64,000 nt of DNA. Origin: Candidatus Adlerbacteria bacterium (GTDB taxonomy: Bacteria; Patescibacteriota; Minisyncoccia; Phycocordibacterales; SBAW01). Under the pieces are notes generated by a model that ran no database searches, was not told where the DNA came from, and saw only the letters and a program-made list of their open reading frames with translations. Location of the stretch: contig JBAXLB010000001.1 of assembly GCA_037135035.1 (NCBI GenBank), forward strand, positions 94,465-158,464. Direction: 5' to 3'. The position numbers were made by a program, and so were the translations under genes. Position 1 is the first letter of the stretch, and the number at the start of each line of letters is the position of its first letter. Below, in pieces: positions 8,217 to 58,601 of this stretch.

Positions 8217-8224
8217 TACAAAAT

Positions 8225-8480: not shown

Positions 8481-8636
8481 CCCACGGGTAGAAAGAACGA
8501 GGGGTGGGTTAATGGTGGAGGCGCCGGGTACTGCCCCCCCGGGTCCGCAACACCTATTCTACGCCAACTCCTGACACCACTTATACATATACCAAAGATA
8601 TTTTTTACGTCAACTGCTACAACAATTTAATTTATA

Positions 8637-8668
8637 GAAAAGAAAACCCCAGCCTGGAATGGCTGGGG
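8637..8668 (-). terminator. Rho-independent terminator for the 8678..9868 gene.
   Basis: Minus-strand CCCCAGCC-auucca-GGCUGGGG followed by UUUUCUUUUC. Confidence 0.7.
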
Positions 8669-8677
8669 GTAGTGGGT

Positions 8678-9868
8678 CTAGGAGGTGGAACCCTCCGAAA
8701 GGATCTTGCGGATCAGCTCGACGTGTTCACGTGCTGATGCGTACTTCGGGTCAGCGAGCTTGGCGTCGATTTCCTGCAGTCCGGCTTGTGAAGTGAAGAG
8801 CACCTCGCGCTGCGTTTGCAACAACCTTTCGAGTCGGGCGACTTCCGACTCGACACGGCCGATATCCGTGGCGACGGCTTCCCGTTGCGCGCGGAGTCCC
8901 CGTTCTTCGGTGAGCAGGACAGTGAGCTGCTGGATGTCGCTCAATCCAGCTGCAGGCAGTGAAGGCGTGTTGGCCAACTTCTGCCACTTGGATCCAAAGC
9001 TGAGCCAGTTCTCACTCTGCGATGACGTCACAAGGTGTTCGTCGCGGATGAGGCTGGCCAAGACAGATCCAGCACCCTGTCCTTGGACGAACGACTGGTC
9101 CACGAGAACCCGAAGACAGTCTGCCCGGCTGACGTATCCGTCGGGTGTAGCGTGCTTTCCGAGTTCCTCCATATAGAGCGTCATGGAGGTGGAATCGGAA
9201 GAGAGCGCCTTACTGCGAGGAGTAGCAACCTTTGGAGGGGTTGTCGGAGTAGGAGCCGCTGGTGCGGGTGGCTGGGCCGGCGGAGGAGTCGGAACAGGAG
9301 CTGGCGCAGCTTTGGCCTGTGGAGGGGCCGCAGCAACGGGCTTCTTTTCCGCGAACTTCTTCGCCTCGGGTGCGAAGAGGTCTTGTCCCGCTTGGCCGTA
9401 CCTGGCCCTACGTTCCAGCGCCTGGTCGGCAGTCTCCCTGTCCAACAATCCCTTGCCGGTTTTCAGGAGGCCGGTGAAGTGATTCGAGTCCATACCGTGT
9501 GGGGCAACGATCATGGATTCGAACCGGTCGTCGTTGGACCCGTAGTGGATACTGAAGATCGCCCCGCCGGCAGCAGGTATGCCAAGAGTGAGGCCTTTGG
9601 TATGGTGCCGGCCGGGGAGTTTGCCTTTGACGACCATCTGGAATTGACCGCCGAGACCCGATATGGCGAAGAGTTCCGTGATGTCTCGCCAGAATAGGCG
9701 CTTGTCACGGACGTGCTTTTGGGCGAAGAAATCGTTTCCTCCGAGCTTGAAAGTCGGCAAGACACGCTTGTCGTCCTTCGTCATCACGAGGTAACCAGAG
9801 GCGATGCCTGCGACGTGTGTGAACGTGACATTGCCGGGGCAGGGAGGAGTCGGGCTAGAGTTAGCCAT
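8678..9868 (-). CDS. Hypothetical protein: N-terminal ~170-aa globular domain, Pro/Ala-rich linker, C-terminal ~180-aa coiled-coil region. GC-rich relative to its neighbours.
   Basis: Long ORF with a consistent reading frame and a terminator downstream. The APAPVPTPPPAQPPAPAAPTPTTPP linker and a heptad-like Leu/Glu/Arg-rich C-terminus are visible. No family recognised. Confidence 0.6.
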   Translation of the reverse strand: MANSSPTPPCPGNVTFTHVAGIASGYLVMTKDDKRVLPTFKLGGNDFFAQKHVRDKRLFWRDITELFAISGLGGQFQMVVKGKLPGRHHTKGLTLGIPAAGGAIFSIHYGSNDDRFESMIVAPHGMDSNHFTGLLKTGKGLLDRETADQALERRARYGQAGQDLFAPEAKKFAEKKPVAAAPPQAKAAPAPVPTPPPAQPPAPAAPTPTTPPKVATPRSKALSSDSTSMTLYMEELGKHATPDGYVSRADCLRVLVDQSFVQGQGAGSVLASLIRDEHLVTSSQSENWLSFGSKWQKLANTPSLPAAGLSDIQQLTVLLTEERGLRAQREAVATDIGRVESEVARLERLLQTQREVLFTSQAGLQEIDAKLADPKYASAREHVELIRKILSEGSTS

Positions 9869-9992
9869 AGTACACCGTCTTTCTGAGTGGGTTGTTTTGT
9901 GTAAGGTACGCGTACGCTTAGCTAGTTAGTAGCTTGAACTAATAATAGCAAATTGTCAATAGTGGTGTTTCTTTTGGTATACTTAGAACTCA

Positions 9993-12239
9993 ATGCGATT
10001 GAAATCAATAGAACTAAGCGGCTTTAAGTCGTTTGCAAAAAAGACGCAACTAGAATTTGCGTCGGCTATTACGTCTGTTGTGGGGCCTAACGGTTCGGGC
10101 AAAAGTAACATTGCAGAGAGCTTTCGTTTTGTACTTGGCGAGCAGTCGATGAAGTCGATGCGCGGCAAACGCGGCGAAGACATGATCTGGAACGGCTCGG
10201 CTGCGGTGCCCCGTGGCGGGAGAGCGTCGGTCAAACTTGTATTCGACAATAGTGACCGCGCATTAAATTTAGACTTTGACGAAGTTGCGCTCGAGCGCGT
10301 TGTGTACCGAGACGGGGGCAACGACTACTTGCTAAACGGCAGCCAAGTGCGCCTGCGTGACATTTCCGAACTCCTTTCGCAGGCAAACATTGGTGCAACC
10401 GGCCACCATATTATCTCGCAAGGCGAGGCCGACCGTGCACTGTCTGCCAGTGCACGCGAGCGCAGAGAGATGATAGAAGATGCGCTTGGGTTGACCGCGT
10501 ATTTATATAAAAAAGTTGAGGCCGAGAGGAAGTTGGAAAAGACAGCCGAGAACATGCGTGAGGTAAGTAGTTTGCGCCGCGAACTTGCACCCCACCTGCG
10601 TTTTTTGCAAAACCAGGTAAAGAAAATTGAACAGTCGGAACAATTGCGAAGCGAGACGACCGACGCGTACCTCGAATATTTTAAACGCGAAAGTGTGTAC
10701 TTGCGCGTTGCGACAAGTATCCTTGCTGAAGAAAACGATACACCAAAAGAAGAGCACGCACAGCTAAACCAAACGATTGCCCATTTGCGTGGTGAAGTTG
10801 CTAAAAAACAGGGCGACAGCGGTGCGTCGGAGTTAGTTGGGCTGGAACAGGCTGGCCGCGCGGCTGGCGCTCGTGAAGGGGAGGTCGTGCGCGAACTTGG
10901 CCGTATTGAAGGCGAGATGCACGCGCACGAGCGGATTTCCAAAACAGTAGAAGAGTCTGTCCCGGCCGCTGACGTACGTGCGTTTGCAGAGCAGGTAGAA
11001 AAAGATTTGGAAGAAACACTAAACCTTGATGCGACACAGATAAAAAACCGCCTGTCCGCACTTGTGGTATTTGCAAAAGAATTTCTGCGCCGCATGACGC
11101 ACACAAACACTGCTGCTGAACATTCGTTGGAAGAACTACGAAAAAGAAAAGAAGTACTGGAGCAGGAAGTACAGACTCTCCGAGCCGAAAGTGAGCGTGT
11201 TGCTAGTGCGGTGCGTGCCCTGCGGACAAAAATCGAAGGCGAAAAAGACGCAAACAGAGAAGCCGAGCGCGAACTGTTTGCTGCTATGGCACGCCGCAGC
11301 GAGCTGGAAACTGTGCTGGCTGCAGCCCGTGCAGGGGAAGAAAAACTTACTCGCGAACGCGAGCAGTTTAAACAAGAACTGGGCGAAGCGGCCGTGCTTA
11401 TTGGGCGTGCTATAAGCAACTACGAAGAGTATGAAGTCCGTGCGGCAAGCGGGGAAATAGTGTCTGACGCAGACATTGCTGAAGAGGCTCGAAGTGTGCA
11501 GGAAGACAGGCGCCGCAAGCTAGAGCGCATGAAAATTCGCTTAGAAGAACTTGGCGCGGGCAACTCTGCCGAAGTGTTGAAAGAGCATGTGGAAACCGTC
11601 GAGCGCGATGCATTTTTGGCGCGCGAAATTGCCGACCTAGAAGTGTCGGCCCAGTCTTTGCGTGAGCTTATTGAAGAGCTGACTAAAACGTTGCAGGTAA
11701 AATTTGTTGAAGGAATTGAAAAAATAAACAGCGAGTTTGACCGCTTCTTTAAGTTGATGTTTGGCGGGGGCTCGGCAGTACTCGCACGTATAAAAGAGAC
11801 TAAACCACTCCGTGGGAGTGGTCGCCCGACTGACCAAGAAATTGGTCAGTTTAGGGAAAAAGATGAAGACATTTCTGGGGTTGAAGAGGGGGTAGAAATT
11901 ACTATCGCCCTGCCCCACAAGCGCATCAAAGGCCTACACATGCTTTCGGGCGGGGAGCGTGCGCTAACATCTATTGCACTTATTTTTGCAATGAGCCAAG
12001 TTAACCCGCCGCCGTTCCTTATTTTGGACGAAACAGACGCGGCGCTCGACGAAGCCAACTCGCGCCGCTATGGCGACATGATAGAGAGCTTGGCGGAAAA
12101 GTCGCAGCTTATTTTGATAACCCACAATCGCGAAACCATGAGCCGTGCCGGAATTTTGTACGGCGTCACTATGGGCCAAGACGGTGTGTCCAAACTCCTT
12201 TCAGTTAAATTTGAAGAAGCTGTTGCAGTGGCAAAATAA
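9993..12239 (+). CDS. smc: SMC-family chromosome segregation ATPase, short form (748 aa).
   Basis: N-terminal MRLKSIELSGFKSF...GPNGSGKSN Walker A. C-terminal LSGGERALTSIALIFA signature plus Walker B ILDETDAALD. Long coiled-coil between them. Confidence 0.8.
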   Translation: MRLKSIELSGFKSFAKKTQLEFASAITSVVGPNGSGKSNIAESFRFVLGEQSMKSMRGKRGEDMIWNGSAAVPRGGRASVKLVFDNSDRALNLDFDEVALERVVYRDGGNDYLLNGSQVRLRDISELLSQANIGATGHHIISQGEADRALSASARERREMIEDALGLTAYLYKKVEAERKLEKTAENMREVSSLRRELAPHLRFLQNQVKKIEQSEQLRSETTDAYLEYFKRESVYLRVATSILAEENDTPKEEHAQLNQTIAHLRGEVAKKQGDSGASELVGLEQAGRAAGAREGEVVRELGRIEGEMHAHERISKTVEESVPAADVRAFAEQVEKDLEETLNLDATQIKNRLSALVVFAKEFLRRMTHTNTAAEHSLEELRKRKEVLEQEVQTLRAESERVASAVRALRTKIEGEKDANREAERELFAAMARRSELETVLAAARAGEEKLTREREQFKQELGEAAVLIGRAISNYEEYEVRAASGEIVSDADIAEEARSVQEDRRRKLERMKIRLEELGAGNSAEVLKEHVETVERDAFLAREIADLEVSAQSLRELIEELTKTLQVKFVEGIEKINSEFDRFFKLMFGGGSAVLARIKETKPLRGSGRPTDQEIGQFREKDEDISGVEEGVEITIALPHKRIKGLHMLSGGERALTSIALIFAMSQVNPPPFLILDETDAALDEANSRRYGDMIESLAEKSQLILITHNRETMSRAGILYGVTMGQDGVSKLLSVKFEEAVAVAK

Positions 12240-46808: not shown

Positions 46809-46849
46809 TTGGCAAGTTAGTTGTAAGGCTTGCCAAAACTTGACATAAT
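46809..46849 (+). promoter_or_regulatory. Candidate promoter (TTGTAA-N17-CATAAT) overlapped by an 8-bp inverted repeat TTGGCAAG-N12-CTTGCCAA. Putative operator for the HTH domain of the downstream methyltransferase.
   Basis: Sequence read directly; the -10 hexamer lies ~25 nt upstream of the ATG at 46875. Confidence 0.4.
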
Positions 46850-46874
46850 TTCCCAAAAGGTAGAAGATGCCTTT

Positions 46875-49052
46875 ATGAATGAAACACAAGACGACAGACT
46901 TTACACGTTGCAGGAGGTGGCGGACATGCTTCATGTTAGCGAGCGTACGACTTTCCGCTACATTCACGATAAGAAATTGAACGCAAAGAAAATTGGGGGT
47001 GCATGGCGTGTTACAAGTGCTGATCTCAAAGCATTTCTTGCAGGAGAAGCGCCGGAGGTGCTTCGCGCTGTTGAGAAGGACATGGTGGGCAAGCGCGATA
47101 GTTTGACGAAAGCCGACATTAAGCGCGTGTGCGACATTCTGCGCCGCGACGATGGCGTCGGGGCGAAGGATTACATCGAGCAATTCTCATGGCTCCTATT
47201 TCTCAAAGTATTCGAGGGCGTCGAAGCGCAGCTCAAGGAACTTGAAGAGGCTGAAGGGCGAAAATATAAATCAGTCATTGATGCCGAATACCAATGGTCG
47301 GCGTGGGCCAAGAAGGACTGGAAGGACAAGGATGAACTCATTCATTTCATAAATCAGAAACTCTTCCCTTACTTGCAAACGTTGCAGGGAGACCCACGCC
47401 GCGACAAGATCGGTCAGATATTCCGCGAACTGCCGGGCAACCGCATCCGCTCGCCTCATAACCTTCTTGATGTCATCGATATTCTCAACAAGATAGAGAA
47501 ACATCATTTTCAGGATACAAACCTTCTCTCGCAGGTCTATGAAGAAATCTTGCAGGCGATGGGAAGCGAAGGTGGCTGGTCGGGGGAGTTCTATTCTCCA
47601 AGACCGCTCATCCGCCTCATGGTCAAAATCGTAAATCCGATGCTCGGTGAGACAGTTCTCGATCCTTTCGTTGGGTCGGGCGGCTTCCTCGTGGAAAGCT
47701 TCAATCACATCTACGAAAACTCTGCAAAAGATGTTCGTGCATGGAAAACACTCCAAACTAAAACGCTCTACGGGCAGGAAAAGAAACCGTTGCCATTTCT
47801 AATCGGCACGATGAACCTCATTTTACATCATGTCCTCGTGCCTAATCTCGTACGCACGAACACCTTTATGGAGGATGTGCACAACACGCCCGAAAGCGAG
47901 AAAGTAAACGTGATTTTGACGAACCCTCCATTTGGTGCGGAAGAATCGAAAGCGGTGCAGAACAACTACCCGATCCAAGTTGGAGCGACCGAAGGTCTTG
48001 CGCTTCAGTATGTGATGAAGCGCCTCAAAAACGGCGGCCGGTGCGGCATCATTCTTCCGGAGGGCAACGTATTGTTTGGTGGAGGAGCCATGGCTCGCAT
48101 ACGCGAGGAGCTTCTCACAAAATTTAATGTGTCGGCAATCATTTCTCTACCGCAAGGTACTTTCTCCCAAATGGGGACTGGTATTAAGACCAACCTCATA
48201 TTCTTTGAAAAAACTGGCGGTACAAAGGAGATTTGGTATGGCGAAGTAAAGGGAAAGTTTACTAAGAAGAAAACCGTGCAAGATAGCGACTTGTATGAGG
48301 TGTTCGAGAAGTGGAAAAAGCGTGAAAATTCAGATACTTCTTGGACAGTGCCTATAGCTACTATCAAGGAGCAGGGTTATAACATATTGCCAAAGAACCC
48401 AAACACCACGAATGAAATGTTCGAGAGCCCGGATGAATTGATACAAGCTTTAGAAAATGGACAGAGCGCAGTTGAGAAAGCAATACAGTCACTTGGCTCA
48501 CTTTATAGAAAACTCTCGGTAACCTCAGCGGGACAAAGATATTCATTGACAGAACTTTTTGACCGATTGCCAGCCGGAAGGAAATATTCTAAGAAAGAGG
48601 TGCGAGATGAAGGCAAGGTGCCCGTCATTGACCAGAGCCAGAGTGATGTGTTTGGTTATCACAACCTTAAGCCGGATATTCATGCGTCAGAGGGTGAACC
48701 TGTTATTACCTTCGCTAACCACACAAGAGCTGTTAGGTATATGACCCATGATTTCTCGGTAATACAAAATGTATTTCCATTACGCGCAAAAGCCGTCATT
48801 TTACCTCGCTTCGGTTACTACTTGCTACAAGAAGTAGTTCCAAATGAGGGCTATAAGGGTCACTGGCCTCTGCTCGAGAAAATGAGCTTTTCCATTCCTG
48901 ATTTAAAGAGTCAGGCAGAGATTGTTAAAATCGCCGATGCCATATGGGAACATATCTCTGAACTGCAAAAGCAAGTTGGTAAACAGCATTCTGATTTGAT
49001 GCTGTTTCGGAGTTCATTCTTGCTATCAATATTTCAAGCTGAGGATAAATAG
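46875..49052 (+). CDS. hsdM: Type I R-M methyltransferase fusion: N-terminal excisionase-type HTH, HsdM N6-adenine MTase, and a C-terminal single HsdS target-recognition domain.
   Basis: HTH YTLQEVADMLHVSERTTFRYIHDKKLNAKKIGGAWRV. MTase motif I DPFVGSGGFL and motif IV NPPFG. C-terminal ~250 aa matches the HsdS TRD pattern ending in the conserved PLLEKMSFSIPDLKSQAEIV region. The listed ORF starts at a TTG at 46830; the ATG at 46875 is preferred. Confidence 0.8.
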   Translation: MNETQDDRLYTLQEVADMLHVSERTTFRYIHDKKLNAKKIGGAWRVTSADLKAFLAGEAPEVLRAVEKDMVGKRDSLTKADIKRVCDILRRDDGVGAKDYIEQFSWLLFLKVFEGVEAQLKELEEAEGRKYKSVIDAEYQWSAWAKKDWKDKDELIHFINQKLFPYLQTLQGDPRRDKIGQIFRELPGNRIRSPHNLLDVIDILNKIEKHHFQDTNLLSQVYEEILQAMGSEGGWSGEFYSPRPLIRLMVKIVNPMLGETVLDPFVGSGGFLVESFNHIYENSAKDVRAWKTLQTKTLYGQEKKPLPFLIGTMNLILHHVLVPNLVRTNTFMEDVHNTPESEKVNVILTNPPFGAEESKAVQNNYPIQVGATEGLALQYVMKRLKNGGRCGIILPEGNVLFGGGAMARIREELLTKFNVSAIISLPQGTFSQMGTGIKTNLIFFEKTGGTKEIWYGEVKGKFTKKKTVQDSDLYEVFEKWKKRENSDTSWTVPIATIKEQGYNILPKNPNTTNEMFESPDELIQALENGQSAVEKAIQSLGSLYRKLSVTSAGQRYSLTELFDRLPAGRKYSKKEVRDEGKVPVIDQSQSDVFGYHNLKPDIHASEGEPVITFANHTRAVRYMTHDFSVIQNVFPLRAKAVILPRFGYYLLQEVVPNEGYKGHWPLLEKMSFSIPDLKSQAEIVKIADAIWEHISELQKQVGKQHSDLMLFRSSFLLSIFQAEDK

Positions 49053-49053
49053 T

Positions 49054-51507
49054 ATGGCTTACTCAGAAGATGACACAAGGGTTAAACTTATAGACCCAAA
49101 AATACACGAAGCAGGATGGAAGGAGGAATACATCCTTCGCAACTATGCTATTGCCGACGATCGCTTTTACGTTGAGGGTGAGGAATATAAACGACTTCCG
49201 ACTGCTAAATTTGCTGATTATGTGCTGACTTACAACAATCTCACCATCGCTGTGCTCGAAGCAAAGGCGGAAGATGAAGAGCCTCTTAAGCATATGAGTC
49301 AGGCGCAGGATTACGCAAAGCGCCTCGATGTGCCGTTCGCGTACATCTCAAATGGCAAGACAATCTACCTGCACGATCGGCGCACAAAGAAAACGGAGAA
49401 GGTCTCGTCGTATCTTTCGCCCGAGGAGATGCATAAAGCATATCTGGAGTGGAAGGGGCTCGCGAATCAGAATCTCTCGGCGCTCGAATATCCACTCTAC
49501 ATAAGTGGAACCAAACGCCCCCGTGCCTATCAGGAAACCGCTATTAAGGATGTGGTGGAAAATATCACCAAGGGTAAGAAGGCGACGCTCCTCACGATGG
49601 CAACCGGCACCGGTAAGACTTTCACGGCCTTTCAAATCGTATGGAAACTCGTCAAATCGAAATCCATGCACCGCGTCCTCTTCTTGAGTGATCGCGTCAT
49701 CCTTCGCGATGACTCATACAGTCGAGACTTCGAACCATTCGGTGAGACGCGCCACAAGATAGAAGGAGGTAACTTCAATAAGAATCGCGATATCTACTTC
49801 GCTACATATCAAACCCTTTTCACCAACGACCTCTACAAGGACATCCCATCGGACTTCTTTGATCTCATCGTTATAGACGAGTGTCACCGCTCCCGCTATG
49901 GCGACTGGGGTGCGGTTTTGGATCACTTCGGTTCTGCCGCTCAACTTGGCATGACCGCTACTCCGAAGCGCGAAGACAATATTGACGTGTATGACTATTT
50001 TGGAGAGCCTGTTTTTGAATACTCGCTCGGACAGGCAATAGACGACGGGTACCTCGTGCCATACAAAATCTACAAAGTTACAACCAATCTTTACCGCAAG
50101 GGTTTGAATGTCGCTGCAGCAGAAGAAGTCATTTACGATGATGAAATTGAGCCCGCGGACGTGAAGGACTTTTACGAGCCGTCCGAGTACGAGCGTGCGG
50201 TTACCATTCCGGAACAGATAGACCTTCTCTCAAGCAAGGTCATTCAGGTGCTCAACGACACTAACCAGTATGGAAAAACAATCGTCTTTTGCGTCGACAT
50301 GGCACACGCTCAAGCAGTCAAGGACAAACTCAACGAAATCAAAGGGAGGGAGGATTACGCTACCCGCATCGTGGCGGAGGATAAAGATGACCTAACTGTT
50401 TTCCGCGATAAAGAGCGGCCGATGCCGGTTGTTGCGACAACGGTAGATTTGCTCTCGACAGGCGTGGATATTCCACACATCCAAAATATCGTGTTTATGC
50501 GCCCGATTGCATCGCGCGTGCTCTTCAAGCAAATCATGGGCCGTGGTTCCCGTCTCTCCGAAGGCAAAGGGTTCTTTAGGATCATTGACTTCACCAATGC
50601 GACACGGCTCATTGATGATTGGGATATTCCCCCAGAGCCGCCTAAGCCGCCCTCTCCGCCAGAGGAACCGATGCCACCGATGGATAAACTGCTCATGGGT
50701 ATTGTCGTAGACAACACGACCGAAGAGCCGGTTGCAAGCGCAATCGTCAAAGCAAAACTTGGGCGCTGGGAGAAGGTCGGAAAGACAGATGAACATGGCT
50801 TCTTCAAGTTGTTTGGCTTGCCGTCCAACGACAAGGTAAACGTGCATATTGAACATGCTGACTACAAGGTATTGAACAAAACCTTAAAACCCCACACGTC
50901 CGACGAAGAGATGCCGTACGAGTTCCGCCTGAAGGCGCTTCGCTCCACGCCGAAGAAAATAACCGTTAAAGGTATCGAGGTTACGATCGACGAGGAAGTT
51001 GAGATTGAGTTCGACGGCATAAAACTCTCAAAAGCAGAATATCGTAGATTCTCCGGGGAGAAGATAGTGGAAATGGTGCATACCACGGACGAACTACGTG
51101 CAGTGTGGCTCGACCCTGAGAAGCGTGAGCTATTCATGGCGGACTTGGAGTCAAAGCGCGTCAATATTCCACTCATTAAATCCATCGAGAACTTAGAAGA
51201 CAGTGACGCATTTGACGTGATAGCTCATATTGCCTTCAACGCGCCGCTTCTCACACGCGAAGACCGCGTCAAGCAGTTTATGCGTGCCAATTCGCAACTC
51301 ATTGACCAGTACGGAACGGAAATTGGCGAAGCCGTTCGCAACATCATGGAAAAATACAAGACCGGCGGCGAAGAGAATATATCGTCACAAGCATTTCTTT
51401 TGCCGAACATGAACGCAAAGAAAGAAGCAATACAGGCTCAATACCCAGGGGGGCTTTTTGGCTTTGTCCGCGGATTAAAAGAGAAGATCTACGAGTTTAG
51501 TAAATAG
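49054..51507 (+). CDS. hsdR: Type I restriction enzyme R subunit (HsdR-like), 817 aa, with an inserted Pro-rich linker plus Ig-like (CarboxypepD_reg-like) domain and an EcoEI_R_C-like C-terminus.
   Basis: N-terminal PD-(D/E)xK nuclease region (DYVL...EAKAED), SF2 helicase motifs TMATGTGKT and VIDECHRS. PPEPPKPPSPPEEPMPP linker then GIVVDNTTEEPVASAIVKAKLG...TDEHGFF beta-sandwich. C-terminal DVIAHIAFNAPLLTREDRVKQ. Confidence 0.85.
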   Translation: MAYSEDDTRVKLIDPKIHEAGWKEEYILRNYAIADDRFYVEGEEYKRLPTAKFADYVLTYNNLTIAVLEAKAEDEEPLKHMSQAQDYAKRLDVPFAYISNGKTIYLHDRRTKKTEKVSSYLSPEEMHKAYLEWKGLANQNLSALEYPLYISGTKRPRAYQETAIKDVVENITKGKKATLLTMATGTGKTFTAFQIVWKLVKSKSMHRVLFLSDRVILRDDSYSRDFEPFGETRHKIEGGNFNKNRDIYFATYQTLFTNDLYKDIPSDFFDLIVIDECHRSRYGDWGAVLDHFGSAAQLGMTATPKREDNIDVYDYFGEPVFEYSLGQAIDDGYLVPYKIYKVTTNLYRKGLNVAAAEEVIYDDEIEPADVKDFYEPSEYERAVTIPEQIDLLSSKVIQVLNDTNQYGKTIVFCVDMAHAQAVKDKLNEIKGREDYATRIVAEDKDDLTVFRDKERPMPVVATTVDLLSTGVDIPHIQNIVFMRPIASRVLFKQIMGRGSRLSEGKGFFRIIDFTNATRLIDDWDIPPEPPKPPSPPEEPMPPMDKLLMGIVVDNTTEEPVASAIVKAKLGRWEKVGKTDEHGFFKLFGLPSNDKVNVHIEHADYKVLNKTLKPHTSDEEMPYEFRLKALRSTPKKITVKGIEVTIDEEVEIEFDGIKLSKAEYRRFSGEKIVEMVHTTDELRAVWLDPEKRELFMADLESKRVNIPLIKSIENLEDSDAFDVIAHIAFNAPLLTREDRVKQFMRANSQLIDQYGTEIGEAVRNIMEKYKTGGEENISSQAFLLPNMNAKKEAIQAQYPGGLFGFVRGLKEKIYEFSK

Positions 51508-51532
51508 AACTTATCAGTAACCTCAACAAATT

Positions 51533-52810
51533 ATGCCAGACTCACACAAAACCAGCGCCGTGATGATTGACTGTCCCAAGTGCGGCGAGACTTACGAGAT
51601 AACAGAAGCGCTCCGTGAGTCGATTGCTGAAAAAGCGAAGGCAGAAGTACTTGCTGATGTTTCTAAGCGAGAGAAAGCTCTTGCGTCGCAAGAGGCAGTC
51701 ATTGCAGGTGAAAAGGAACAGATGGAAAAGCTCAAAGCAACGGAGGCAGAACGGGTCAAGCGAGAAGTAACTAAGCGTGTAGATGAAGAGCGCACAAAGG
51801 TTGTTGCAGATGCAAAAAAGCAGGCACAAGAGGAACTTCGTGTTGAGCTGAAGGATAAGGAGGAGCAGATCAAGGAAAAAGACGCAGCACTCAAAATTGC
51901 TCAAGAAGCAGAGCTCTCTGCCAGAAAGAGAGAACGCGAAGCGGACGAGAGAATCAAGACCGCAGACCTCGAAGTTGAAAAAAAGCTTGCATCTAAACAG
52001 GGTGAGATGGAAGTCGAGATAAGCAAACGATACAACGAAGAGTTTGCTGCAAAAGAACGCCAGAATCAAAAGAAAATAAGCGACCTTGTTCAGCAACTGG
52101 AGGAGGCCAAGATAAAAGCTGAACAAGGATCTCAGCAACTTCAAGGTGAGGTTCAGGAACTTGATCTCGAGCAAGCACTACGTGAAGCGTTTCCGCAGGA
52201 TGTAATCGAGCCTGTCGGCAAGGGCATAAGGGGTGCTGATATTAGACAACGAGTGCAGTCCAGTTCGGGGCGCCTTGCTGGCGTAATTCTGTGGGAGTCA
52301 AAGCAAACAAAAACATGGTCAGACGGCTGGCTCGGCAAACTCAAAGATGACCTTCGCGCCGAGGCAGCAAACATTCCGGTGATCGTGAGTGTTGCAATGC
52401 CTGAGGAAGCGAAAGCAGGATTCGGACAAAAAGAAGGCGTATGGGTGTGCAAGCCGGGCATGGCCATCGGTGTCGCTCATGCTTTCAGACGCCAGCTGCT
52501 TGACGTCGCTTTGGCAAACGCGCAGGCGGAGAGTCGCGGCACACTTGCTGACTCTCTCTATGACTACGTCATAAGCCATGAATTCAGGCAACAGATCGAA
52601 TCGATGGTGGAGGTCTATCGAGAAATGAAAGAGCAGATTGGACGGGAAAGAATTGCTTATGAAAAGTCATGGAAAATACGCGATGCTCAGGTCGACAGAA
52701 TGTTCGTCGGCACGGCACGTGTCGTGGGTTCAATACAAGGTAAGCTCGGGAGCACTGCATTCGGTCCTGTTAAAGGATTGGAATTGCTTGAGGGTCCAGA
52801 AACTGAATAG
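51533..52810 (+). CDS. DUF2130-like protein: N-terminal CPKCG zinc-ribbon half, ~200-aa Lys/Glu coiled-coil, conserved C-terminal globular domain.
   Basis: Domain layout read from the translation. Starts 26 bp after hsdR, and its stop is 4 bp from the next gene. Confidence 0.55.
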   Translation: MPDSHKTSAVMIDCPKCGETYEITEALRESIAEKAKAEVLADVSKREKALASQEAVIAGEKEQMEKLKATEAERVKREVTKRVDEERTKVVADAKKQAQEELRVELKDKEEQIKEKDAALKIAQEAELSARKREREADERIKTADLEVEKKLASKQGEMEVEISKRYNEEFAAKERQNQKKISDLVQQLEEAKIKAEQGSQQLQGEVQELDLEQALREAFPQDVIEPVGKGIRGADIRQRVQSSSGRLAGVILWESKQTKTWSDGWLGKLKDDLRAEAANIPVIVSVAMPEEAKAGFGQKEGVWVCKPGMAIGVAHAFRRQLLDVALANAQAESRGTLADSLYDYVISHEFRQQIESMVEVYREMKEQIGRERIAYEKSWKIRDAQVDRMFVGTARVVGSIQGKLGSTAFGPVKGLELLEGPETE

Positions 52811-52813
52811 TCT

Positions 52814-54082
52814 ATGGCAAAGGCTATTTTCTATTCTTGGCAATCTGATACTCCAAATAAGGTTGGCCGTTCTTTCATAAAAGATGTACTTGAAGAGGTG
52901 TGCGCGGACCTTGCCACGGATGCATCTTTGGATGAAGCTCTTCGCGATGTGGAAGTCGATAGCGACACACAAGGGATTGCAGGGCAACCTCCCATTGCTG
53001 AAACGATTTTCAAAAAAATAGATGCCGCCTCGGTCTTTGTGGCTGACCTGACCTTTACTGGAACACGTATGGACGGACGACCCGCGCCAAATCCAAATGT
53101 CCTAATTGAATATGGATGGGCTCTGAAGTCTCTTACATATTCACGTGTGATCTGCGTTATGAATACAGCCTACGGTGAGCCAAATAATGACACTTTACCG
53201 TTTGATCTCGCACATCTTCGATGGCCTATAAGATACACGTTGTTTGAAGAGTCTACTCCCCAAGAGAGAGCCGACGAAAAAAGAAAGCTGTTTAATGTGC
53301 TCAAGGAAGCGATTAGGCTGAGCATAGCGGCTGTGCCTTCGCCAACTCCGGACCCGCCGCCGGTCTTTCCAGCTGTAGTTGCAAAGGACGGACCAGCTCG
53401 ATTTCGTAGCAAAGGTGAAGCGATAGGCTTCGAAGACGGTCTCCATTACGGAGAATCTACAAAGGAAATATTTCTAACCCCAGGGCCTGCGATGTGGCTT
53501 CGGCTGATGCCGTCAACGAAACCAGAGGGAGAATGGACTCCACGGCAATTGAAAGAATTGTCCTCTCCCAGATCATTACTCATGCCACTAATTCATCCGG
53601 CAGGAGGCTATTCATATCTCAGAGCTTCTGATGGAGAAGGCATGTACCGTGCATCTGATAGTCAAACAGAAGGTTCAATAATCAACATTGCTGGGGTTAC
53701 ATTTGCTTTCAAAACTGGAGAAGTATGGGGCATCGAGACAGCGTTACTTAACTACAGTGAAAACCGTCTCTATATGACGGAAGTAGAACAGAAATTCGTC
53801 GAGGGTATCCTTACTTACTCACAATTTCTAAATGAGCTTGGCATCAACCCTCCCTATCATTGGAAGGCCGGTTTAACTGGCGTGAGAGGTCGGCAAATCG
53901 GATATGCCCCGCGGCCGGGCCATAACTGGATCCGCGATGGAGGCCCGCCCTGCGCCACTGACTTGATCGAAGCCGAGGGAGAGATACTGCCTGATCAACC
54001 GGCAACTACTGCATTACTACCATTCTTCAAAAAGGTATTCGAGGAGTGCGGAATCGAACGTCCAGACTATCTGCCACAATAA
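52814..54082 (+). CDS. TIR-like-domain protein (N-terminal ~170 aa) with a ~250-aa C-terminal domain of unknown function.
   Basis: N-terminal KAIFYSWQSDTPN...AASVFVADLTF...NVLIEYGWAL follows the (V/I)F(I/Y)S(Y/W)xxxD - hydrophobic strand - conserved-Glu pattern of TIR/DUF1863 folds. The C-terminal half is unrecognised. Confidence 0.45.
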   Translation: MAKAIFYSWQSDTPNKVGRSFIKDVLEEVCADLATDASLDEALRDVEVDSDTQGIAGQPPIAETIFKKIDAASVFVADLTFTGTRMDGRPAPNPNVLIEYGWALKSLTYSRVICVMNTAYGEPNNDTLPFDLAHLRWPIRYTLFEESTPQERADEKRKLFNVLKEAIRLSIAAVPSPTPDPPPVFPAVVAKDGPARFRSKGEAIGFEDGLHYGESTKEIFLTPGPAMWLRLMPSTKPEGEWTPRQLKELSSPRSLLMPLIHPAGGYSYLRASDGEGMYRASDSQTEGSIINIAGVTFAFKTGEVWGIETALLNYSENRLYMTEVEQKFVEGILTYSQFLNELGINPPYHWKAGLTGVRGRQIGYAPRPGHNWIRDGGPPCATDLIEAEGEILPDQPATTALLPFFKKVFEECGIERPDYLPQ

Positions 54083-54338
54083 AAACAGAATCTAATGCTG
54101 GATATCGTTTCTGTGTGGGGTAGAATGTGAGCGTAGCTCTTTAAGTTACAACAATTGAATAAAAAGGACCTAACCCGCAGTCACTGCGGCAAGGTCGACA
54201 AGTCGTATAAGGCACAAAGAACCCATCATGGGGTCGCCTTATACGCCATATCGGGAAACTGGTATGAGTGGCTTCGGCCACTACCCGTGGTGGGCTTTTT
54301 GTGACCATCACGGGATTAGCAACTAAGGCTAATTGCCA

Positions 54339-54485
54339 TGAGTGAAAGTCTCGAGGTTGGTTTAGGGGCAGGAGTTATGGGGCTCGGTATCTGGTCATTT
54401 TCAGTCGGCTACATCCTTGGTGGTATATTCTTCACCTTGTGTGGAATGCTCTTAATGTGGTTCGCAATATATGCCCGAAAATAAG
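54339..54485 (+). CDS. Unlisted 48-aa two-TM peptide. Its stop overlaps the start of the next gene (ATGCCCGAAAATAA).
   Basis: MSESLEVGLGAGVMGLGIWSFSVGYILGGIFFTLCGMLLMWFAIYARK. Preceded by a structured leader. Confidence 0.3.
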
Positions 54486-54839
54486 AGAAAGCTAAGACTT
54501 GCAGGGGTTGTAACCCTTATCGCCGGTGTCGGCGCGCTTGGAGCCCTTTTGAGCGCTTACGGGGCTCCACGGAACACAACAGCAGTTGCAGACAGCCTAC
54601 GTTGCCCGAGTCAGTATTCAACGGACGCGGAAGCAGCTGCAGCATTCAAGACATTCAGCGACGATTATTACGCGAACCACCCAAATGCCACTATGGGAGA
54701 AATGCTCCAAGCGCGAATCGATTTCTACACTACGCATCATTGCACTGAGGAGCTTCAAAGATATAAGCAAGCCGCAGCCGGCGAAGCAGATAAGGCAACA
54801 ATGGACACGATAGATGCAGCAATACAGGGAGCGCAGTGA
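54471..54839 (+). CDS. Small secreted/membrane-anchored protein (122 aa).
   Basis: N-terminal signal/TM (LAGVVTLIAGVGALGALLSAYG), translationally coupled to the upstream peptide. Confidence 0.4.
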   Translation: MPENKRKLRLAGVVTLIAGVGALGALLSAYGAPRNTTAVADSLRCPSQYSTDAEAAAAFKTFSDDYYANHPNATMGEMLQARIDFYTTHHCTEELQRYKQAAAGEADKATMDTIDAAIQGAQ

Positions 54840-54897
54840 AACTTGATTAAATCAAAAAACGCGTCTTTTGTCTCAAAATAAATCCTTTATCTACAAG

Positions 54898-55437
54898 CTA
54901 AATCATCTGTGCTCTCTTTGCGAGATCTGCGGGCAAACGCTCCAATATCCATGATGACTGAGTGCGAAGGAAGAACAACTTCCATATTCTTGAGCAACTA
55001 AAAAAATACCTCGTCCTAACTTGCCACGGCCTTTCATCTTCGAACTCGTCGTGCCTGATCATGATTACTATCTTTTCATAACCGGGTTGAAACATACTGT
55101 CCATAAAGCAGCGACGCAGAGGTACGCGACCGCGAGTCTCTAAATCTTTAGCGAGAGCCTCAATAACTTTGTCGAGGGCACCCGAAGCGGCCCATTCGTG
55201 AAGTCGTCGATGGCATGACTGAAAGGGTGGGTATCCTTCGCGCGTCAGTCTCCTCAATGTGACGCCCTTCTCCAATAGTAGAAGTACTCCATCAAGTAAC
55301 TGACGGTCAGACTGCCTTTTGCGGCCTCTGGTTTCCAAACGTTGAGGGCGTGATACGAGAGGTGCAACTAATTGCCATTGCTTGTCCGATAAATGGAAGG
55401 TCACAAATAAATTGTAGCGCCAGTCATTAAAAGACAC
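54898..55437 (-). mobile_element. IS5-family (IS427/IS1182-like) transposase remnant: OrfA-like N-terminal HTH (DUF4096) only. The DDE catalytic domain is absent.
   Basis: LSDKQWQLVAPLV...RGRKRQSDRQLLDGVL...RRLHEWAASGALDKVIEAL matches the conserved start of IS5/IS4-family OrfA. No DDE-bearing continuation in any frame. Confidence 0.55.
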
Positions 55438-55965
55438 ATTTCCATAAAGCGTTATCCACAGGTGTTGAAACTACATTCGTGCCCCCTCATCGACAAAAAC
55501 ACTCCCATCGTCTCGGTGAGAGGGGGCACGTTTGTACATATGCCATGCTGTGGACAAACTTTCTCAAACCAATGCTCTGATAACATAAGTATAGTTCTTT
55601 CTTCACTGCAAACCGATATAAATCGGAACCAAAGAAAATGCCGTTGCAAGATGCGAATAGGTGTTTGGCTCACCAGCTCAACACGCTGCTCTACTGAGTA
55701 ATCAGGGAGAGCCGCTTCTGAACAGACCTTTTACGGCATAGGGTTTGTGGTTCTGATTGGCGCCCAGACGGACTGGGTAGCTGAGGGAGAAGCCTCCAGA
55801 TTGTGCACGACTTATTGTCGCGCTCATTCTGGAGGCTTTTTGTTTGCACGAATAAGAGTTGGCTACAAAGACCCGCTTCTTGCGGGAATGGTCGAGTAGC
55901 CAACTCCCATTCTCACAGGTGGCGGATCTTTGTATTCGTCTCCATAAACAAAAAGTCTCCGCATC

Positions 55966-56277
55966 ATGCGGATTAAACAGCAATCATTGCAAGAACTAAA
56001 AAAAATAATAACGCGCGACTATGGCGCGGTTCTTAGCGATGAGGAATCCGCTGAACTTGCGCACGACCTATTACGTTTGACTCGGGTTGCCATGGCTGTG
56101 GTTGCTCGAGGTATTTCTAACAATCGGAAAGCACGGGGTAGTCAGCGAGTCCCCGAGACAACAAAACCGGCTCAAAATCGAGGTGCTCTGCTACCGCCCG
56201 AGATATTGGGCCAAAGCGGCAAACCATCCCGGGCATTGCCCGGGCGTGAGGAGGGCATCTCGAAACTGAAGTCATAA
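55966..56277 (+). CDS. Hypothetical small protein (103 aa).
   Basis: ORF only. Confidence 0.2.
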   Translation: MRIKQQSLQELKKIITRDYGAVLSDEESAELAHDLLRLTRVAMAVVARGISNNRKARGSQRVPETTKPAQNRGALLPPEILGQSGKPSRALPGREEGISKLKS

Positions 56278-56489
56278 CGGCGTGTTCGCCTCAAGGGTCC
56301 CGCCTCCATGGGCATTAACCGACCTTGAGAAAACGGTGTATCAAATCCGTCACGCGCGTTTGGTGGCTTTGTTTTCTGTACAGAGTATCTGTGGCAGTTT
56401 GATATCGATAGGTATCACGCTATGGAGGGGTATGGACTTGTTTACCACTAACGGTAGCTTGTTAGTTGTTATCAATCTAAGCAAAAAAC

Positions 56490-58235
56490 ATGAAAGCGAA
56501 TATTACATACGCTTCGTATGCACGCAAATCCTCCGAAGCAGAAGATAAACAAGCTCTCTCAATCGAGTCGCAAGCAGATGCGTTAAAGAGACTTGCGAAG
56601 AATAAAGAGGTTGATCTAAAAGAAGAAAATATTCTTGAAGAGTCGCATTCAGCAAAACAAGCGTTTGCAAGACCCGTATTCGAGCGATTGTTAAAAGAAA
56701 TCGAGTCCAGAAAGGTGCAAGGAATACTCGCGTGGCACCCAAATAGACTTTCTCGTAACGCTATCGATGCTGCACGTCTCATCCAGCTGATGGATGAAGA
56801 AAAGTTGATAGAAATACTTACACCAAGTCAAACGTTTAAGAACACCCCACAAGATAAGTTCTTCTTCCAGATGATGACGAGTCAGGCAAAAATGGAAAAT
56901 GATACCAAGGGCATCGAGGTGCGCAGGGGGTTACGTAAAAAGAATCAAATGGGTTTTCCAGGAGGGGTGGCAAAACCCGGCTACGAAAATGACTACGGCC
57001 TCAAGGGCCAGCGAAAGATAATAGTGGATCTGGAACGGTTCGAACTTGTAAAACAGATGTTTAAACTCTTTTTGTCAGGTAAATACTCTGTCCGGAAGCT
57101 GACCAAATATGCCGAGGAAGTAATGGGCTTGCGCTCAATACAGCGAACAAAAGAAGGTGGGAAGCCCCTCGCATTGTCGCGCGTTTACGCCATTCTACAA
57201 GACCCATTCTATGCTGGATTCTTTTACGGTAAAGATGAAGACCGAGAGACTGTGCGCTACGAGGTAAACGAGGCTCTGCCACGCATGATTACCGAGGAAG
57301 AGTATTGGGAAATACAGGCCATGCTGGGGCGCAAAGGGGTGCCACGGCCGACCATCAACAAGCGTATATTTCCTTACACCGGTAGAACCAAATGCGGCAC
57401 GTGTGGCGGTAGCGTTACGGCGGAGCACAAACACCAGCTCATCTGCTCGGAATGTAAGTACAAATTTGCTTATCAAAACAAGACGGTGTGCCCAACATGT
57501 GAGACAAAAATAAGCGATATGGATAACGCAGTCTACTTGCACTACATCTACTATCACTGCACCAAGAAGCGAAGTGCGGATTGTCCAGAAGGAAGTGTAC
57601 AAGAGTTTAAAATAGACGACTCCATGGCGGAGTACGCTGAAAATAACTTCACCATATCAAAGTCATTGAGCGACTGGTGCATCCAGCATCTGGATGAACT
57701 GGCAAAAAATGACAAACAGAATGAGTATGAGCGCAAAGGAACCTGGGAGCGTGAACTTGCCCAAAAGGAGAAAGAGAGCGAGGAGCTGGTGCGCATGCGT
57801 ATCAAAGGGCTTATTACCGACGATGCTGAGTTCTTTAAGCATAAGGCAACCCTTGAGGCCGACAAGAAACGAATTAAACAAGTACTCACCGATATGGGAG
57901 GTACAGATATGACAACTCTGGAGAAGGCCAAAGAGGCCTTCAGTCTCGTCGTAGGGGTAGCCGAGGTTTTCCGCAAAGGCACCTTTGATGAGAAACAAGA
58001 GGCTCTTTCAGCTCTTGGCTCGAACCTAACGCTGAAGGACAAAAAACTCAACGTTATCAACAAAGAAATCTTCTCGGTGATTACAAAAGGCCTTCTTGAG
58101 GCTAAGGCAGTAAACAAGGCGTTCGAACCTAAAAACTGTGAGGCAGATAAAGACGAAACCGAGGTCTTTACCTCGGTTCGTCCAACTATGCTCCGCGACC
58201 AGGACTCGAACCTGGAACCAACTCCTTACACGTGA
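56490..58235 (+). CDS. Large serine recombinase (resolvase/invertase N-terminal catalytic domain, recombinase domain, zinc ribbon, coiled-coil); integrase of a putative integrated element.
   Basis: Catalytic-serine region YARKSSEAEDKQALSIESQ, zinc ribbon CGTCGG...C...C, long coiled-coil C-terminus. The last ~45 nt overlap the tRNA-Asn 3' exon on the opposite strand. Confidence 0.85.
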   Translation: MKANITYASYARKSSEAEDKQALSIESQADALKRLAKNKEVDLKEENILEESHSAKQAFARPVFERLLKEIESRKVQGILAWHPNRLSRNAIDAARLIQLMDEEKLIEILTPSQTFKNTPQDKFFFQMMTSQAKMENDTKGIEVRRGLRKKNQMGFPGGVAKPGYENDYGLKGQRKIIVDLERFELVKQMFKLFLSGKYSVRKLTKYAEEVMGLRSIQRTKEGGKPLALSRVYAILQDPFYAGFFYGKDEDRETVRYEVNEALPRMITEEEYWEIQAMLGRKGVPRPTINKRIFPYTGRTKCGTCGGSVTAEHKHQLICSECKYKFAYQNKTVCPTCETKISDMDNAVYLHYIYYHCTKKRSADCPEGSVQEFKIDDSMAEYAENNFTISKSLSDWCIQHLDELAKNDKQNEYERKGTWERELAQKEKESEELVRMRIKGLITDDAEFFKHKATLEADKKRIKQVLTDMGGTDMTTLEKAKEAFSLVVGVAEVFRKGTFDEKQEALSALGSNLTLKDKKLNVINKEIFSVITKGLLEAKAVNKAFEPKNCEADKDETEVFTSVRPTMLRDQDSNLEPTPYT

Positions 58236-58484
58236 CCCCGAACTTACGTAAGGGCGTGGACTATATCATCACCCGTTCTGGGTGCGAGGCGCTTCGTCCC
58301 GAAATTCGGGACTACTTCCGTTTGGAATAGTCTCTGAACCTTTCCCCAGAGTGGGGACTTGGCTGCTGATTGCCCTTCTCAAATGAGAATAGGGTTTCCA
58401 GACAATTCACCTCGTTTGCAACCCACATTCCTGTGGGAGGCTGCCTATCGACAGGGAGCTGCTCTACCATTGAGCTATCGCGGA
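58191..58484 (-). tRNA. tRNA-Asn(GUU) interrupted by a 222-nt group I intron in the anticodon loop. Exon 1 is 58451-58484, intron 58229-58450, exon 2 58191-58228.
   Basis: Exons assemble to UCCGCGA-UA-GCUCAAUGGUAGAGC-A-GCUCC-CUGU|UAA-GGAGU-UGGUU-CCAGGUUCGAGUCCUGG-UCGCGGA-G. This has a perfect 7-bp acceptor stem, G73 discriminator and a CUGUUAA loop, and closely resembles B. subtilis tRNA-Asn. Splicing after U33 would instead give Thr(UGU), judged less likely. Confidence 0.65.
58229..58450 (-). other. Group I self-splicing intron (tRNA anticodon-loop type).
   Basis: Conserved core elements on the minus strand: P-like GAAUUGUCUGGAAAC, Q-like AAUCAGCAGCC, R GUUCAGAGACUA (plus 58328-58339), S GAUAUAGUCC (plus 58258-58267). 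The P1 exon sequence CUGU pairs with intronic GCAG with a U.G at the splice site. The intron ends in G. Confidence 0.75.
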
Positions 58485-58601
58485 ATATACTATCCTACAA
58501 AACCAAATCGGAATTGAAGAATACCGCTCTAATATAGCAAAAAATGCTTAATTGGAAAGGCCTCACAGAGTCTTTAGGTGGGCAGCTGATATACTGGGGG
58601 A

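Follow-up and report, generated by a model that had tools for sequence, protein, structure and literature searches.

A tRNA-Asn(GUU) gene of the Patescibacteria very probably split between U35 and U36 by an IA-type group I intron

We find that the window (the whole 64-kb stretch of DNA analysed here) very probably holds a functional tRNA-Asn(GUU) gene of Patescibacteria, in which a 222-nt group I intron, self-splicing, ORF-less and IA-type in architecture, separates U35 from U36. The gene lies on the minus strand, and its parts and flanking signals are as follows.

58531-58558, minus strand: promoter-like site, TTTCCA, 16-nt spacer and TG-TATATT, some 47 nt upstream of where the tRNA starts; weak
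58451-58484, minus strand: tRNA-Asn 5' exon, 34 nt, tRNA positions 1-35, identified by its acceptor-stem pairing with the 3' exon
58229-58450, minus strand: group I intron, 222 nt, without an ORF, comprising P1-P9 with P7.1 and P7.2, from the Rfam match and homologue structure
58191-58228, minus strand: tRNA-Asn 3' exon, 38 nt, starting with UAA (U36, A37, A38) and placing G73 at 58191
58156-58179, minus strand: terminator-like hairpin followed by a T-rich tail, located 12 nt downstream of the tRNA; weak

The 5' exon (58484-58451 on the minus strand, UCCGCGAUAGCUCAAUGGUAGAGCAGCUCCCUGU) terminates in CUGU, with U35 as its final base, and the 3' exon (58228-58191 on the minus strand) reads UAAGGAGUUGGUUCCAGGUUCGAGUCCUGGUCGCGGAG. 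The initial annotation of this DNA had described two minus-strand tRNA halves around a 222-nt insert, forming a canonical cloverleaf with a discriminator G and no encoded CCA, and a check of the sequence agreed on every count. The insert runs exactly from 58450 to 58229, the exons form a 7-bp acceptor stem (UCCGCGA/UCGCGGA), a D arm (GCUC-AAUGGUA-GAGC) and a T arm (CCAGG-UUCGAGU-CCUGG), and the discriminator G73 is followed by CAUA, so that CCA is not encoded. Default ARAGORN reported 0 tRNAs in the whole 64-kb window, where a further tRNA, whatever its isotype, was likewise not detected. The ARAGORN intron search that the annotation had proposed as a check did recover the split tRNA, placed its 222-nt intron behind loop base 2 and gave its isotype as Thr(tgt), that is, Thr(UGU); the product spliced in silico was called as tRNA-Asn(gtt). 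Promoter-like sites (2 found versus 0.7 expected in shuffles) and terminator-like hairpins (1 versus 1.0) were no more frequent than in shuffled sequence.

A second proposed check, a search with the Rfam covariance model, called a group I intron: the match to Intron_gpI (RF00028) scored 79.2 bits (E = 1.8e-18; gathering score 50), which is far beyond chance. The minimum free energy of the intron has a z-score of -4.0. The Rfam alignment also placed P1 and P2 upstream of the tRNA (58532-58452); this placement is wrong, the true P1 lying at 58454-58441 and P2 at 58437-58422. The elements of the intron, in transcript order, are listed below.

58441-58454, minus strand: P1 helix, C32 U33 G34 U35 and intron C+1 (58454-58450) paired with the guide GGCAG (58445-58441)
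58422-58437, minus strand: P2 hairpin, CCCACA-GGAA-UGUGGG, with a GNRA-type loop, from compensatory cells in homologues
58408-58414, minus strand: P3 5' strand, CGAGGUG, partner 58291-58285
58338-58404, minus strand: P4-P5-P6 domain, including the conserved AAUCAGCAGCCAAG segment, from homologue pairing
58328-58339, minus strand: R element, GUUCAGAGACUA, including the P7 5' strand (guanosine-binding helix), in a pseudoknot with the S element
58316-58327, minus strand: P7.1 hairpin, UUCC-AAAC-GGAA, 91% paired, compensatory changes in 4/4 pairs
58296-58312, minus strand: P7.2 hairpin, GUCCCG-AAUUU-CGGGAC, from homologue covariation
58285-58291, minus strand: P3 3' strand, CGCCUCG, from homologue pairing
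58270-58284, minus strand: P8 hairpin, CACCC-AGAAC-GGGUG, 96.7% paired, 4/5 pairs covarying
58258-58267, minus strand: S element, GAUAUAGUCC, including the P7 3' strand, pairing with the R element
58237-58254, minus strand: P9 hairpin with a GUAA (GNRA) loop, 86.9% paired, 4/5 pairs covarying
58229, minus strand: intron terminal guanosine (omega-G), just before the 3' splice site, from sequence

To assess this structure, we collected homologues by scanning genomes for an R element, an S element and a T-loop in the correct order, which returned more than 120 loci, mostly Patescibacteria metagenome-assembled genomes (MAGs). ARAGORN could call split tRNAs at 84 of these loci, and 76 of the 84 have the form CUGU/intron...G/UAA (slashes mark the junctions) with a U1...GGAG acceptor, although the CUGU and G/UAA features are circular because both were required when the 75 homologues were collected. 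Covariation was counted on 49 aligned homologues, drawn from the loci chosen by the scan pattern. Counted over the entire proposed structure, 87.0% of cells were paired, versus 32-43% with the partners slid, and compensatory changes occurred in 43 of 66 pairs; none of 500 shuffles matched the observed values. P3 was paired in 97.4% of cells, with compensatory change in 4 pairs, P4 in 98%, P6 in 100% and P6a in 95%, all five P6a pairs covarying; P4 likewise showed compensatory changes. The three loop-proximal pairs of P2 each had 18-35 compensatory cells, and its GNRA loop was kept in the homologue alignment. The R and S elements were identical, and P7 100% paired, in 49/49 homologues, but the invariance of R and S is by construction, because the locus-selection pattern fixes both elements.

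Pair counts are low for the first base of the intron, P5a and inner P7.2, all of which MAFFT misaligned. P5a was accordingly only 57% paired; in P7.2 the outer four pairs were 79% paired and all covaried, while the inner pairs were poorly aligned. A direct recount of the +1 pair showed covariation: in 65 of 71 homologues intron nucleotide +1 pairs, as GC, CG, AU, UA or GU, with the base 5' of GCAG. P1 itself is short, with four exon pairs and one intron pair closed by a GAUA loop, and its C-G, U-A, G-C and U•G pairs were unchanged in 49/49 homologues. The annotated CUGU/GCAG helix with a U•G pair is confirmed, the wobble falling at U35, where it marks the 5' splice site. No clear candidate was found for a P10 pairing with the 3' exon. 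Collectively, P2-P9, P7.1 and P7.2 are backed by covariation. The group I core elements and terminal G that the initial annotation had recognized in the insert (GUUCAGAGACUA, GAUAUAGUCC and G58229) stand, and the P3-P9 helices, which it had suggested verifying by folding, are present with covariation support across the 49 homologues.

The presence of P7.1 and P7.2 fits an IA-type architecture. It is highly unlikely that the insert is instead a classical IC3 intron of the Azoarcus tRNA-Ile or Anabaena tRNA-Leu type that has moved to a new tRNA, even though the window intron is small (222 nt), lacks an ORF, sits in the anticodon loop and carries GNRA loops on P2 and P9, which presumably resemble those of the Azoarcus intron. 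Two covarying extra helices, P7.1 and P7.2, lie between P7 and P3', and to our knowledge IC3 introns have neither. An IC3 assignment would call for an intron without P7.1 or P7.2 at site 33/34, 34/35 or 36/37, whereas the window intron has both helices and interrupts 35/36. Published classification also argues against this alternative, since 25 of 28 introns at 35/36 were classed as IA and no Patescibacteria tRNA intron as IC (PMC13011429). Moreover, a general intron-core pattern combining the P4'/P6 and R motifs (GCAGCCAAGUCC...GGUUCAGAGACUA) matched 96 viral contigs, in agreement with the inclusion of viruses among IA intron hosts (PMC13011429).

We next consider where the exons join, which bears on the identity of the tRNA. 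The initial annotation had allowed that splicing after U33 would give tRNA-Thr(UGU), with the intron two bases upstream at U33/34 (CU/GU...CACG/UGUAA), as ARAGORN intron mode reads it. In the window both boundaries satisfy the rule that the exon ends in U and the intron in G, and the intron ends in GUG in 60 of 75 homologues, so that the same two-base shift is permitted there. We nevertheless regard tRNA-Thr as extremely unlikely. In 14 of the 75 homologues the intron ends in AUG or UUG, and the Thr reading would therefore leave A or U, not G, as the intron end. U33 is Watson-Crick paired with a guide A in 49/49 homologues, leaving U35 as the sole P1 wobble. Furthermore, the tRNA body, with U1-A72 and G73, resembles intron-less tRNA-Asn, while G1-C72 and U73 are seen in the one Thr gene of the isotype reference, which comprised 26 tRNAs without introns from related loci of Patescibacteria. 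The best matches to the spliced body were two tRNA-Asn(GUU) genes (58/72 and 54/72 identities), both with U1 and ...GGAG ends, and among these 26 tRNAs the Asn identity was moderately above that of other isotypes (58/72 versus 50/72). E. coli genomes were uninformative as to the isotype of the spliced tRNA, the best matches being tRNA-Arg at E ~0.1-0.5. In a homologue whose spliced product was sequenced the junction was at 35/36, and the Thr(UGU) 33/34 miscall by ARAGORN and tFind is documented for the class (PMC13011429). Taken together, the position of U35•G, the homologue ends and the tRNA body support the annotated tRNA-Asn(GUU) with an intron between 35 and 36, while P1 pairing, homologue ends and tRNA body disfavour the Thr alternative.

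For the tRNA-Asn(GUU) gene, we infer that the window copy is transcribed and spliced, by the following scheme. A precursor would be transcribed from the minus strand, and its intron would adopt the P1-P9 fold, P7.1 and P7.2 included, with the P2 and P9 GNRA loops probably making the usual tertiary contacts. Pairing of the guide GGCAG with C32-U35 and C+1 would bring the wobble pair U35•G to the 5' splice site, where exogenous guanosine bound at P7 would attack after U35. The terminal G (58229) would next take the P7 site, and the freed 3'-OH of U35 would attack after it, joining the exons into the loop CUGUUAA with anticodon GUU. The tRNA would be completed by RNase P, by trimming at its 3' end and by the addition of CCA, the last proposed because CCA is not encoded. 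For one homologue, from GCA_016700035.1, precise self-splicing at 35/36 has been demonstrated in vitro, and mutation of its terminal G to C abolished exon ligation (PMC13011429).

The closest relative among the loci found is L182, from a Candidatus Adlerbacteria MAG of the Patescibacteria group, and the host of the window gene appears, from sequence, to be an Adlerbacteria-like member of the Parcubacteria group of Patescibacteria. The exons of the two genes are identical and their introns differ at 7 positions, all of them loop or unpaired positions or compensatory, including a P5a C-G pair replaced by U-A. A hibernation-factor protein next to the tRNA gene is 98% identical to its L182 counterpart. 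The flanks diverge from L182 immediately outside the tRNA; nothing in the window is homologous to the 6.9 kb that lie downstream of the tRNA in L182, and the comparison did not delimit the island.

Because the gene abuts an island carrying a serine recombinase, one could propose that mobile DNA has disrupted it, leaving a decayed copy that has lost intron splicing. The divergence of the flanks from L182 and the recombinase ORF antisense across the whole 3' exon would agree with such decay, but we find it barely credible: every tRNA stem, the conserved core and all intron helices are intact, the exons match at 100% identity those of L182, a locus without the recombinase, the L182 differences are of the kinds just given, no second tRNA was found in the 64-kb window, and copies with and without an intron seldom share one genome when their anticodon is the same (PMC13011429).

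The recombinase ORF encodes 581 aa and occupies 56490-58235 on the plus strand. A large serine recombinase abuts the tRNA-Asn gene in the window and at no fewer than nine other loci (at least 9), and the recombinase frames, antisense across the entire 3' exon, terminate within the intron's 3' end. Which frame is read across the 3' exon varies among the recombinase-bearing loci, and L182 has a near-identical intron with no recombinase nearby. A search of the window for a second tRNA copy or remnant as an island end gave only chance matches, and a search of the literature for serine recombinases targeting tRNA genes in Patescibacteria found nothing relevant. It is conceivable, though improbable, that recombinase-bearing integrative elements recombine inside the split gene, bringing their own 3' exon and intron tail. 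If so, the intron's upkeep or spread would be tied to site-specific recombination and not to homing endonucleases.

Standard tRNA finders either miss the gene, as default ARAGORN did here, or mislabel it as tRNA-Thr(UGU). Genomes of this kind then seem to be without tRNA-Asn, and completeness estimates suffer, a point on missed tRNA genes that has been made earlier (PMC13011429). The window gene adds one further Parcubacteria-group member to a class already described, without posing a new question; only the serine recombinase that recurs beside it might merit separate attention.

The initial annotation had called the Asn host and the 35/36 site unusual. This does not hold: the arrangement is already known, the window gene being a member of the class catalogued in 2020 as 'Asn.4Ug' (Williams, bioRxiv preprint, 10.1101/2020.01.27.920355), and introns at Asn 35/36 are the commonest type of tRNA intron in Patescibacteria (Nakagawa et al. 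2026, mSystems, PMC13011429). With that class the window gene shares the host tRNA, the site, the CUGU/...G/UAA junction, the GCAG guide and the R and S elements, as well as size range, phylum, the ARAGORN miscall and the lack of a homing endonuclease gene. It aligns end to end with the genes of GCA_016700035.1 and GCA_016699245.1 (Paceibacteria), and the latter has the same P7.1/P7.2 sequence pattern. In contrast, the validated Saccharimonadia intron has GAGAGUGAGCCC...CUCUC at P7.1/P7.2, where the window intron has two short hairpins, and the published Asn.4Ug examples come from species other than that of the window, which is Adlerbacteria-like.

Like the window intron, IC3 tRNA introns are small self-splicing ribozymes of the anticodon loop, with a terminal G and a P1 that involves anticodon-loop bases and puts U•G at the 5' splice site. 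They occur in cyanobacterial tRNA-Leu(UAA) at 34/35, in tRNA-fMet at 33/34, and at 36/37 in Azoarcus tRNA-Ile(CAU) and Agrobacterium tRNA-Arg(CCU). The window intron differs from them in its site within the anticodon, at 35/36 (bases 2/3), in its tRNA-Asn host and in having P7.1 and P7.2. With viral IA introns, of which bacteriophage T4 td is an example, it shares the P7.1/P7.2 extensions; familiar examples of those introns lie in protein-coding genes, often with homing endonuclease genes, whereas the window intron is hosted by a tRNA gene and has no ORF.

The split tRNA gene was confirmed in every detail that the initial annotation had given: its halves, cloverleaf, 222-nt insert and terminal G were all borne out by the sequence.

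Parts of the split tRNA gene, read from the sequence
58484-58451, minus strand: tRNA 5' half
58450-58229, minus strand: intron, exactly 222 nt, between both tRNA halves
58228-58191, minus strand: tRNA 3' half

The halves form a 7-bp acceptor stem (UCCGCGA/UCGCGGA), a D arm (GCUC-AAUGGUA-GAGC), an anticodon stem (GCUCC/GGAGU) and a T arm (CCAGG-UUCGAGU-CCUGG), with G as discriminator base and no encoded CCA. The insert contains GUUCAGAGACUA and GAUAUAGUCC, ends in G and leaves no room for an ORF. Its proposed identity as a group I intron held up against the Rfam Intron_gpI covariance model (79.2 bits, E = 1.8e-18; gathering score 50). The 5' end of that alignment was misplaced into DNA upstream of the tRNA. 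ARAGORN under default settings found no uninterrupted tRNA in the 64-kb window, the split tRNA-Asn being the sole tRNA gene found; with intron search it detected the split gene, but labelled it Thr(tgt) rather than Asn, with the intron placed two bases further 5'.

Homologues were sought in one genome per species (GTDB set) with an ordered and spaced pattern of R element, S element (both conserved group I core segments) and T-loop, which matched at least 120 loci, chiefly Patescibacteria MAGs. Among the matches listed, 84 of 122 candidates were ARAGORN-callable split tRNAs, and 76 of those 84 had the U1...GGAG acceptor and CUGU/intron/UAA arrangement; the 76 take in the window and L001, a locus of identical sequence from a different assembly. 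Forty-nine of these homologous introns made up the covariation alignment. Also among the matches listed were introns in other isotypes, as called by ARAGORN: Phe GAA (L168, L175, L185), a CAU anticodon (L194, Vibrio sp.), Leu CAA (L157), Gln CUG (L158) and Asp GUC (L190). The pattern also picked out group I introns in MAGs that carry the labels Omnitrophota, Planctomycetes and Gammaproteobacteria. L111 was called Tyr GUA, yet its junction fits Asn. At L200 and L214, an intron-bearing tRNA of some kind lies close to an intron-less tRNA-Asn(GUU) found within the same 8 kb as the pattern match (4045-4117 and 1230-1302, respectively). The motif pair GCAGCCAAGTCC...GGTTCAGAGACTA is common to the window intron and 96 viral contigs (L002-L097), giant-virus MAGs among them.

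Two boundary pairs in the window obey the rule that the exon ends in U and the intron in G: CUGU/...GUG/UAA, which would place the intron at 35/36 and give Asn(GUU), and CU/GU...ACG/UGUAA, which would place it at 33/34 and give Thr(UGU), as in the ARAGORN call. Group I 5' splice sites are marked by a wobble pair in P1. Throughout the 49-intron alignment, P1 pairs C32-G, U33-A, G34-C and U35•G without variation, such that U35 forms the only wobble pair and U33 is Watson-Crick paired. In 65 of 71 introns, intron base 1 pairs with the nucleotide that immediately precedes the GCAG guide; the pairs are of the types G-C, C-G, A-U and U-A and provide direct covariation for the Asn helix register. The Thr reading would furthermore leave 14 of 75 introns with a terminal A or U. 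When the spliced sequence was compared with 26 intron-less tRNAs of the same loci, the best two matches were both tRNA-Asn(GUU) (58/72 and 54/72) with U1 and a ...GGAG end, whereas G1-C72 and U73 are found in the sole Thr gene; E. coli tRNAs, also compared, were not informative about isotype. Collectively, the position of U35•G, the covariation at intron base 1, the intron ends and the likeness to intron-less tRNA-Asn favour the annotated tRNA-Asn(GUU) with an intron at 35/36, and tRNA-Thr(UGU) is disfavoured.

We drew helices P1-P9 on the window sequence and counted pairs over the 49-sequence alignment. Standard pairs occupied 87.0% of cells, compared to 32-43% when the 3' partners were slid by 1-3 columns, and two-sided changes occurred in 43 of 66 pairs; the observed values were reached by none of 500 shuffles. 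P3, P4, P6, P6a, P8 and P9 were each 87-100% paired, with compensatory changes in all of them except the three-pair P6 stem, and P7 was invariant in the 49 introns, which in part follows from the choice of a search pattern with fixed R and S elements. GNRA loops are conserved on P2 and P9. Pair counts were low for P5a and the inner P7.2 pairs, which we put down to hairpins of variable length being misaligned by MAFFT. A thermodynamic fold of the intron recovered P1, P2, P3, P6a and P8 (z = -4.0).

Among the matches listed, L182 is the nearest locus; it belongs to a MAG of Candidatus Adlerbacteria, in the Patescibacteria group. Its tRNA exons are identical to those of the window, and its intron has 7 differences, which lie in loops or unpaired sites or are compensatory (as in P5a, where C-G is U-A in L182). 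The ribosome hibernation factor next to the tRNA is 98% identical over the 47 residues that the locus covers. The DNA of L182 diverges from that of the window right after G73. Other window genes (peptide deformylase, formyltransferase, NUDIX and YggU) are consistent with a small-genome bacterium. Intact helices, identical exons and constrained substitutions make it unlikely that the window gene is a dead copy.

Established group I chemistry is taken to apply to the window intron. The guide GGCAG would hold C32-U35, free guanosine bound in P7 would attack after U35, the terminal G (58229) would then occupy the guanosine's place, and exon ligation would yield the loop CUGUUAA. The window and its homologues show the anatomy, covariation and isotype of this model; catalysis by the window intron we infer from a homologue.

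Signals flanking the split tRNA gene, neither more frequent than in shuffled sequence
58558-58531, minus strand: promoter-like site
58179-58156, minus strand: terminator-like hairpin

Beside the tRNA 3' end lies a putative island that includes a recombinase gene.

Features beside the tRNA 3' end
46830-49052: HsdM-like, type I restriction-modification, in putative island
49054-51507: HsdR-like, type I restriction-modification, in putative island
54167-54282, plus strand: LOOT RNA motif (RF03000, 79 bits, E = 3e-13)
54898-55437: DUF4096 (IS4/5 transposase) fragment, in putative island
56490-58235, plus strand: large serine recombinase ORF, 581 aa (Pfam Resolvase 7e-24, Recombinase 1e-7)

The recombinase ORF overlaps the tRNA 3' exon (58191-58228), its final 14 codons being antisense of that exon and its stop codon falling inside the intron tail. 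Homologous recombinases (21-34% identity) read through the 3' exon from the same tail-to-tail position; among the matches listed, 49 tRNA-Asn loci extend at least 1.5 kb downstream, and 10 of them show this placement (the window, L198, L128, L179, L098, L106, L115, L135, L139 and L156), with the same reading frame across the 3' exon in most such loci, not all. A 46% identical homologue is likewise placed at L171, a locus without an ARAGORN tRNA call, and several further loci without such a call probably share the arrangement. This suggests an integrative-element family using this tRNA gene as attachment site. No tRNA remnant was found within the window as the other island end, L182 has no recombinase gene beside its tRNA, and a literature search found no description of serine-recombinase elements at this Patescibacteria tRNA gene. 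Upstream of the recombinase are a type I restriction-modification system, a DUF2130 gene and a transposase fragment, and the stretch at ~46830-58235 looks like a mobile defence island; on the same side of its tRNA, L182 carries unrelated genes. Two ORFs of the putative island had no Pfam matches. The LOOT RNA motif lies inside it, flanked by an unannotated 422-aa ORF and a 122-aa ORF.

The window also holds a tmRNA gene.

Permuted tmRNA
8306-8629, minus strand: circularly permuted (two-piece) alpha-type tmRNA gene (RF01849, 111 bits; RF04321, 76 bits)

If the window is of Patescibacteria origin, such a gene would be uncommon in its phylum: in Supplementary Table 2 of a 2025 census (PMC11915505), 20 of 5,275 Patescibacteria tmRNA genes are permuted, 15 of alpha type and 5 of beta type. 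GC is raised locally around the gene (0.558 at 8001-10000).

Two covarying hairpins lie between P7 and P3' of the tRNA intron.

Extra helices of the intron
58327-58316, minus strand: P7.1
58312-58296, minus strand: P7.2

Such helices are a hallmark of subgroup IA, and the IC3 introns long familiar from bacterial tRNA genes are not known to have them; with both present, the window intron does not fit IC3.

The initial annotation considered the Asn host and the insertion after position 35 unusual. With tFind, Williams (bioRxiv 2020, 10.1101/2020.01.27.920355) raised the number of bacterial tRNA types known to carry introns from 4 to 21; as cited in PMC13011429 (Nakagawa et al., mSystems 2026), that work gave the class its name, Asn.4Ug, and noted that it is confused with Thr.2Ug. 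Nakagawa et al. surveyed 95 complete Patescibacteria genomes and report 15 tRNA-Asn(GUU) genes interrupted at 35/36 by a group I intron, often mislabelled by ARAGORN and tFind as Thr(UGU) 33/34. One such intron was shown to self-splice precisely at 35/36 in vitro, with a terminal G-to-C control. In the same study, 25 of 28 introns at 35/36 were classed as IA and no Patescibacteria tRNA intron as IC, and homing endonuclease genes were absent from most of these introns (PMC13011429). The window gene can be aligned end to end with two genes of that study's supplementary table, the validated one included. Since the class was published in 2020 and 2026 and the window gene aligns with its members, the Asn reading is correct, but the host and insertion site can no longer be called unusual: the gene belongs to a known, experimentally validated class, and this exact class had already been published.
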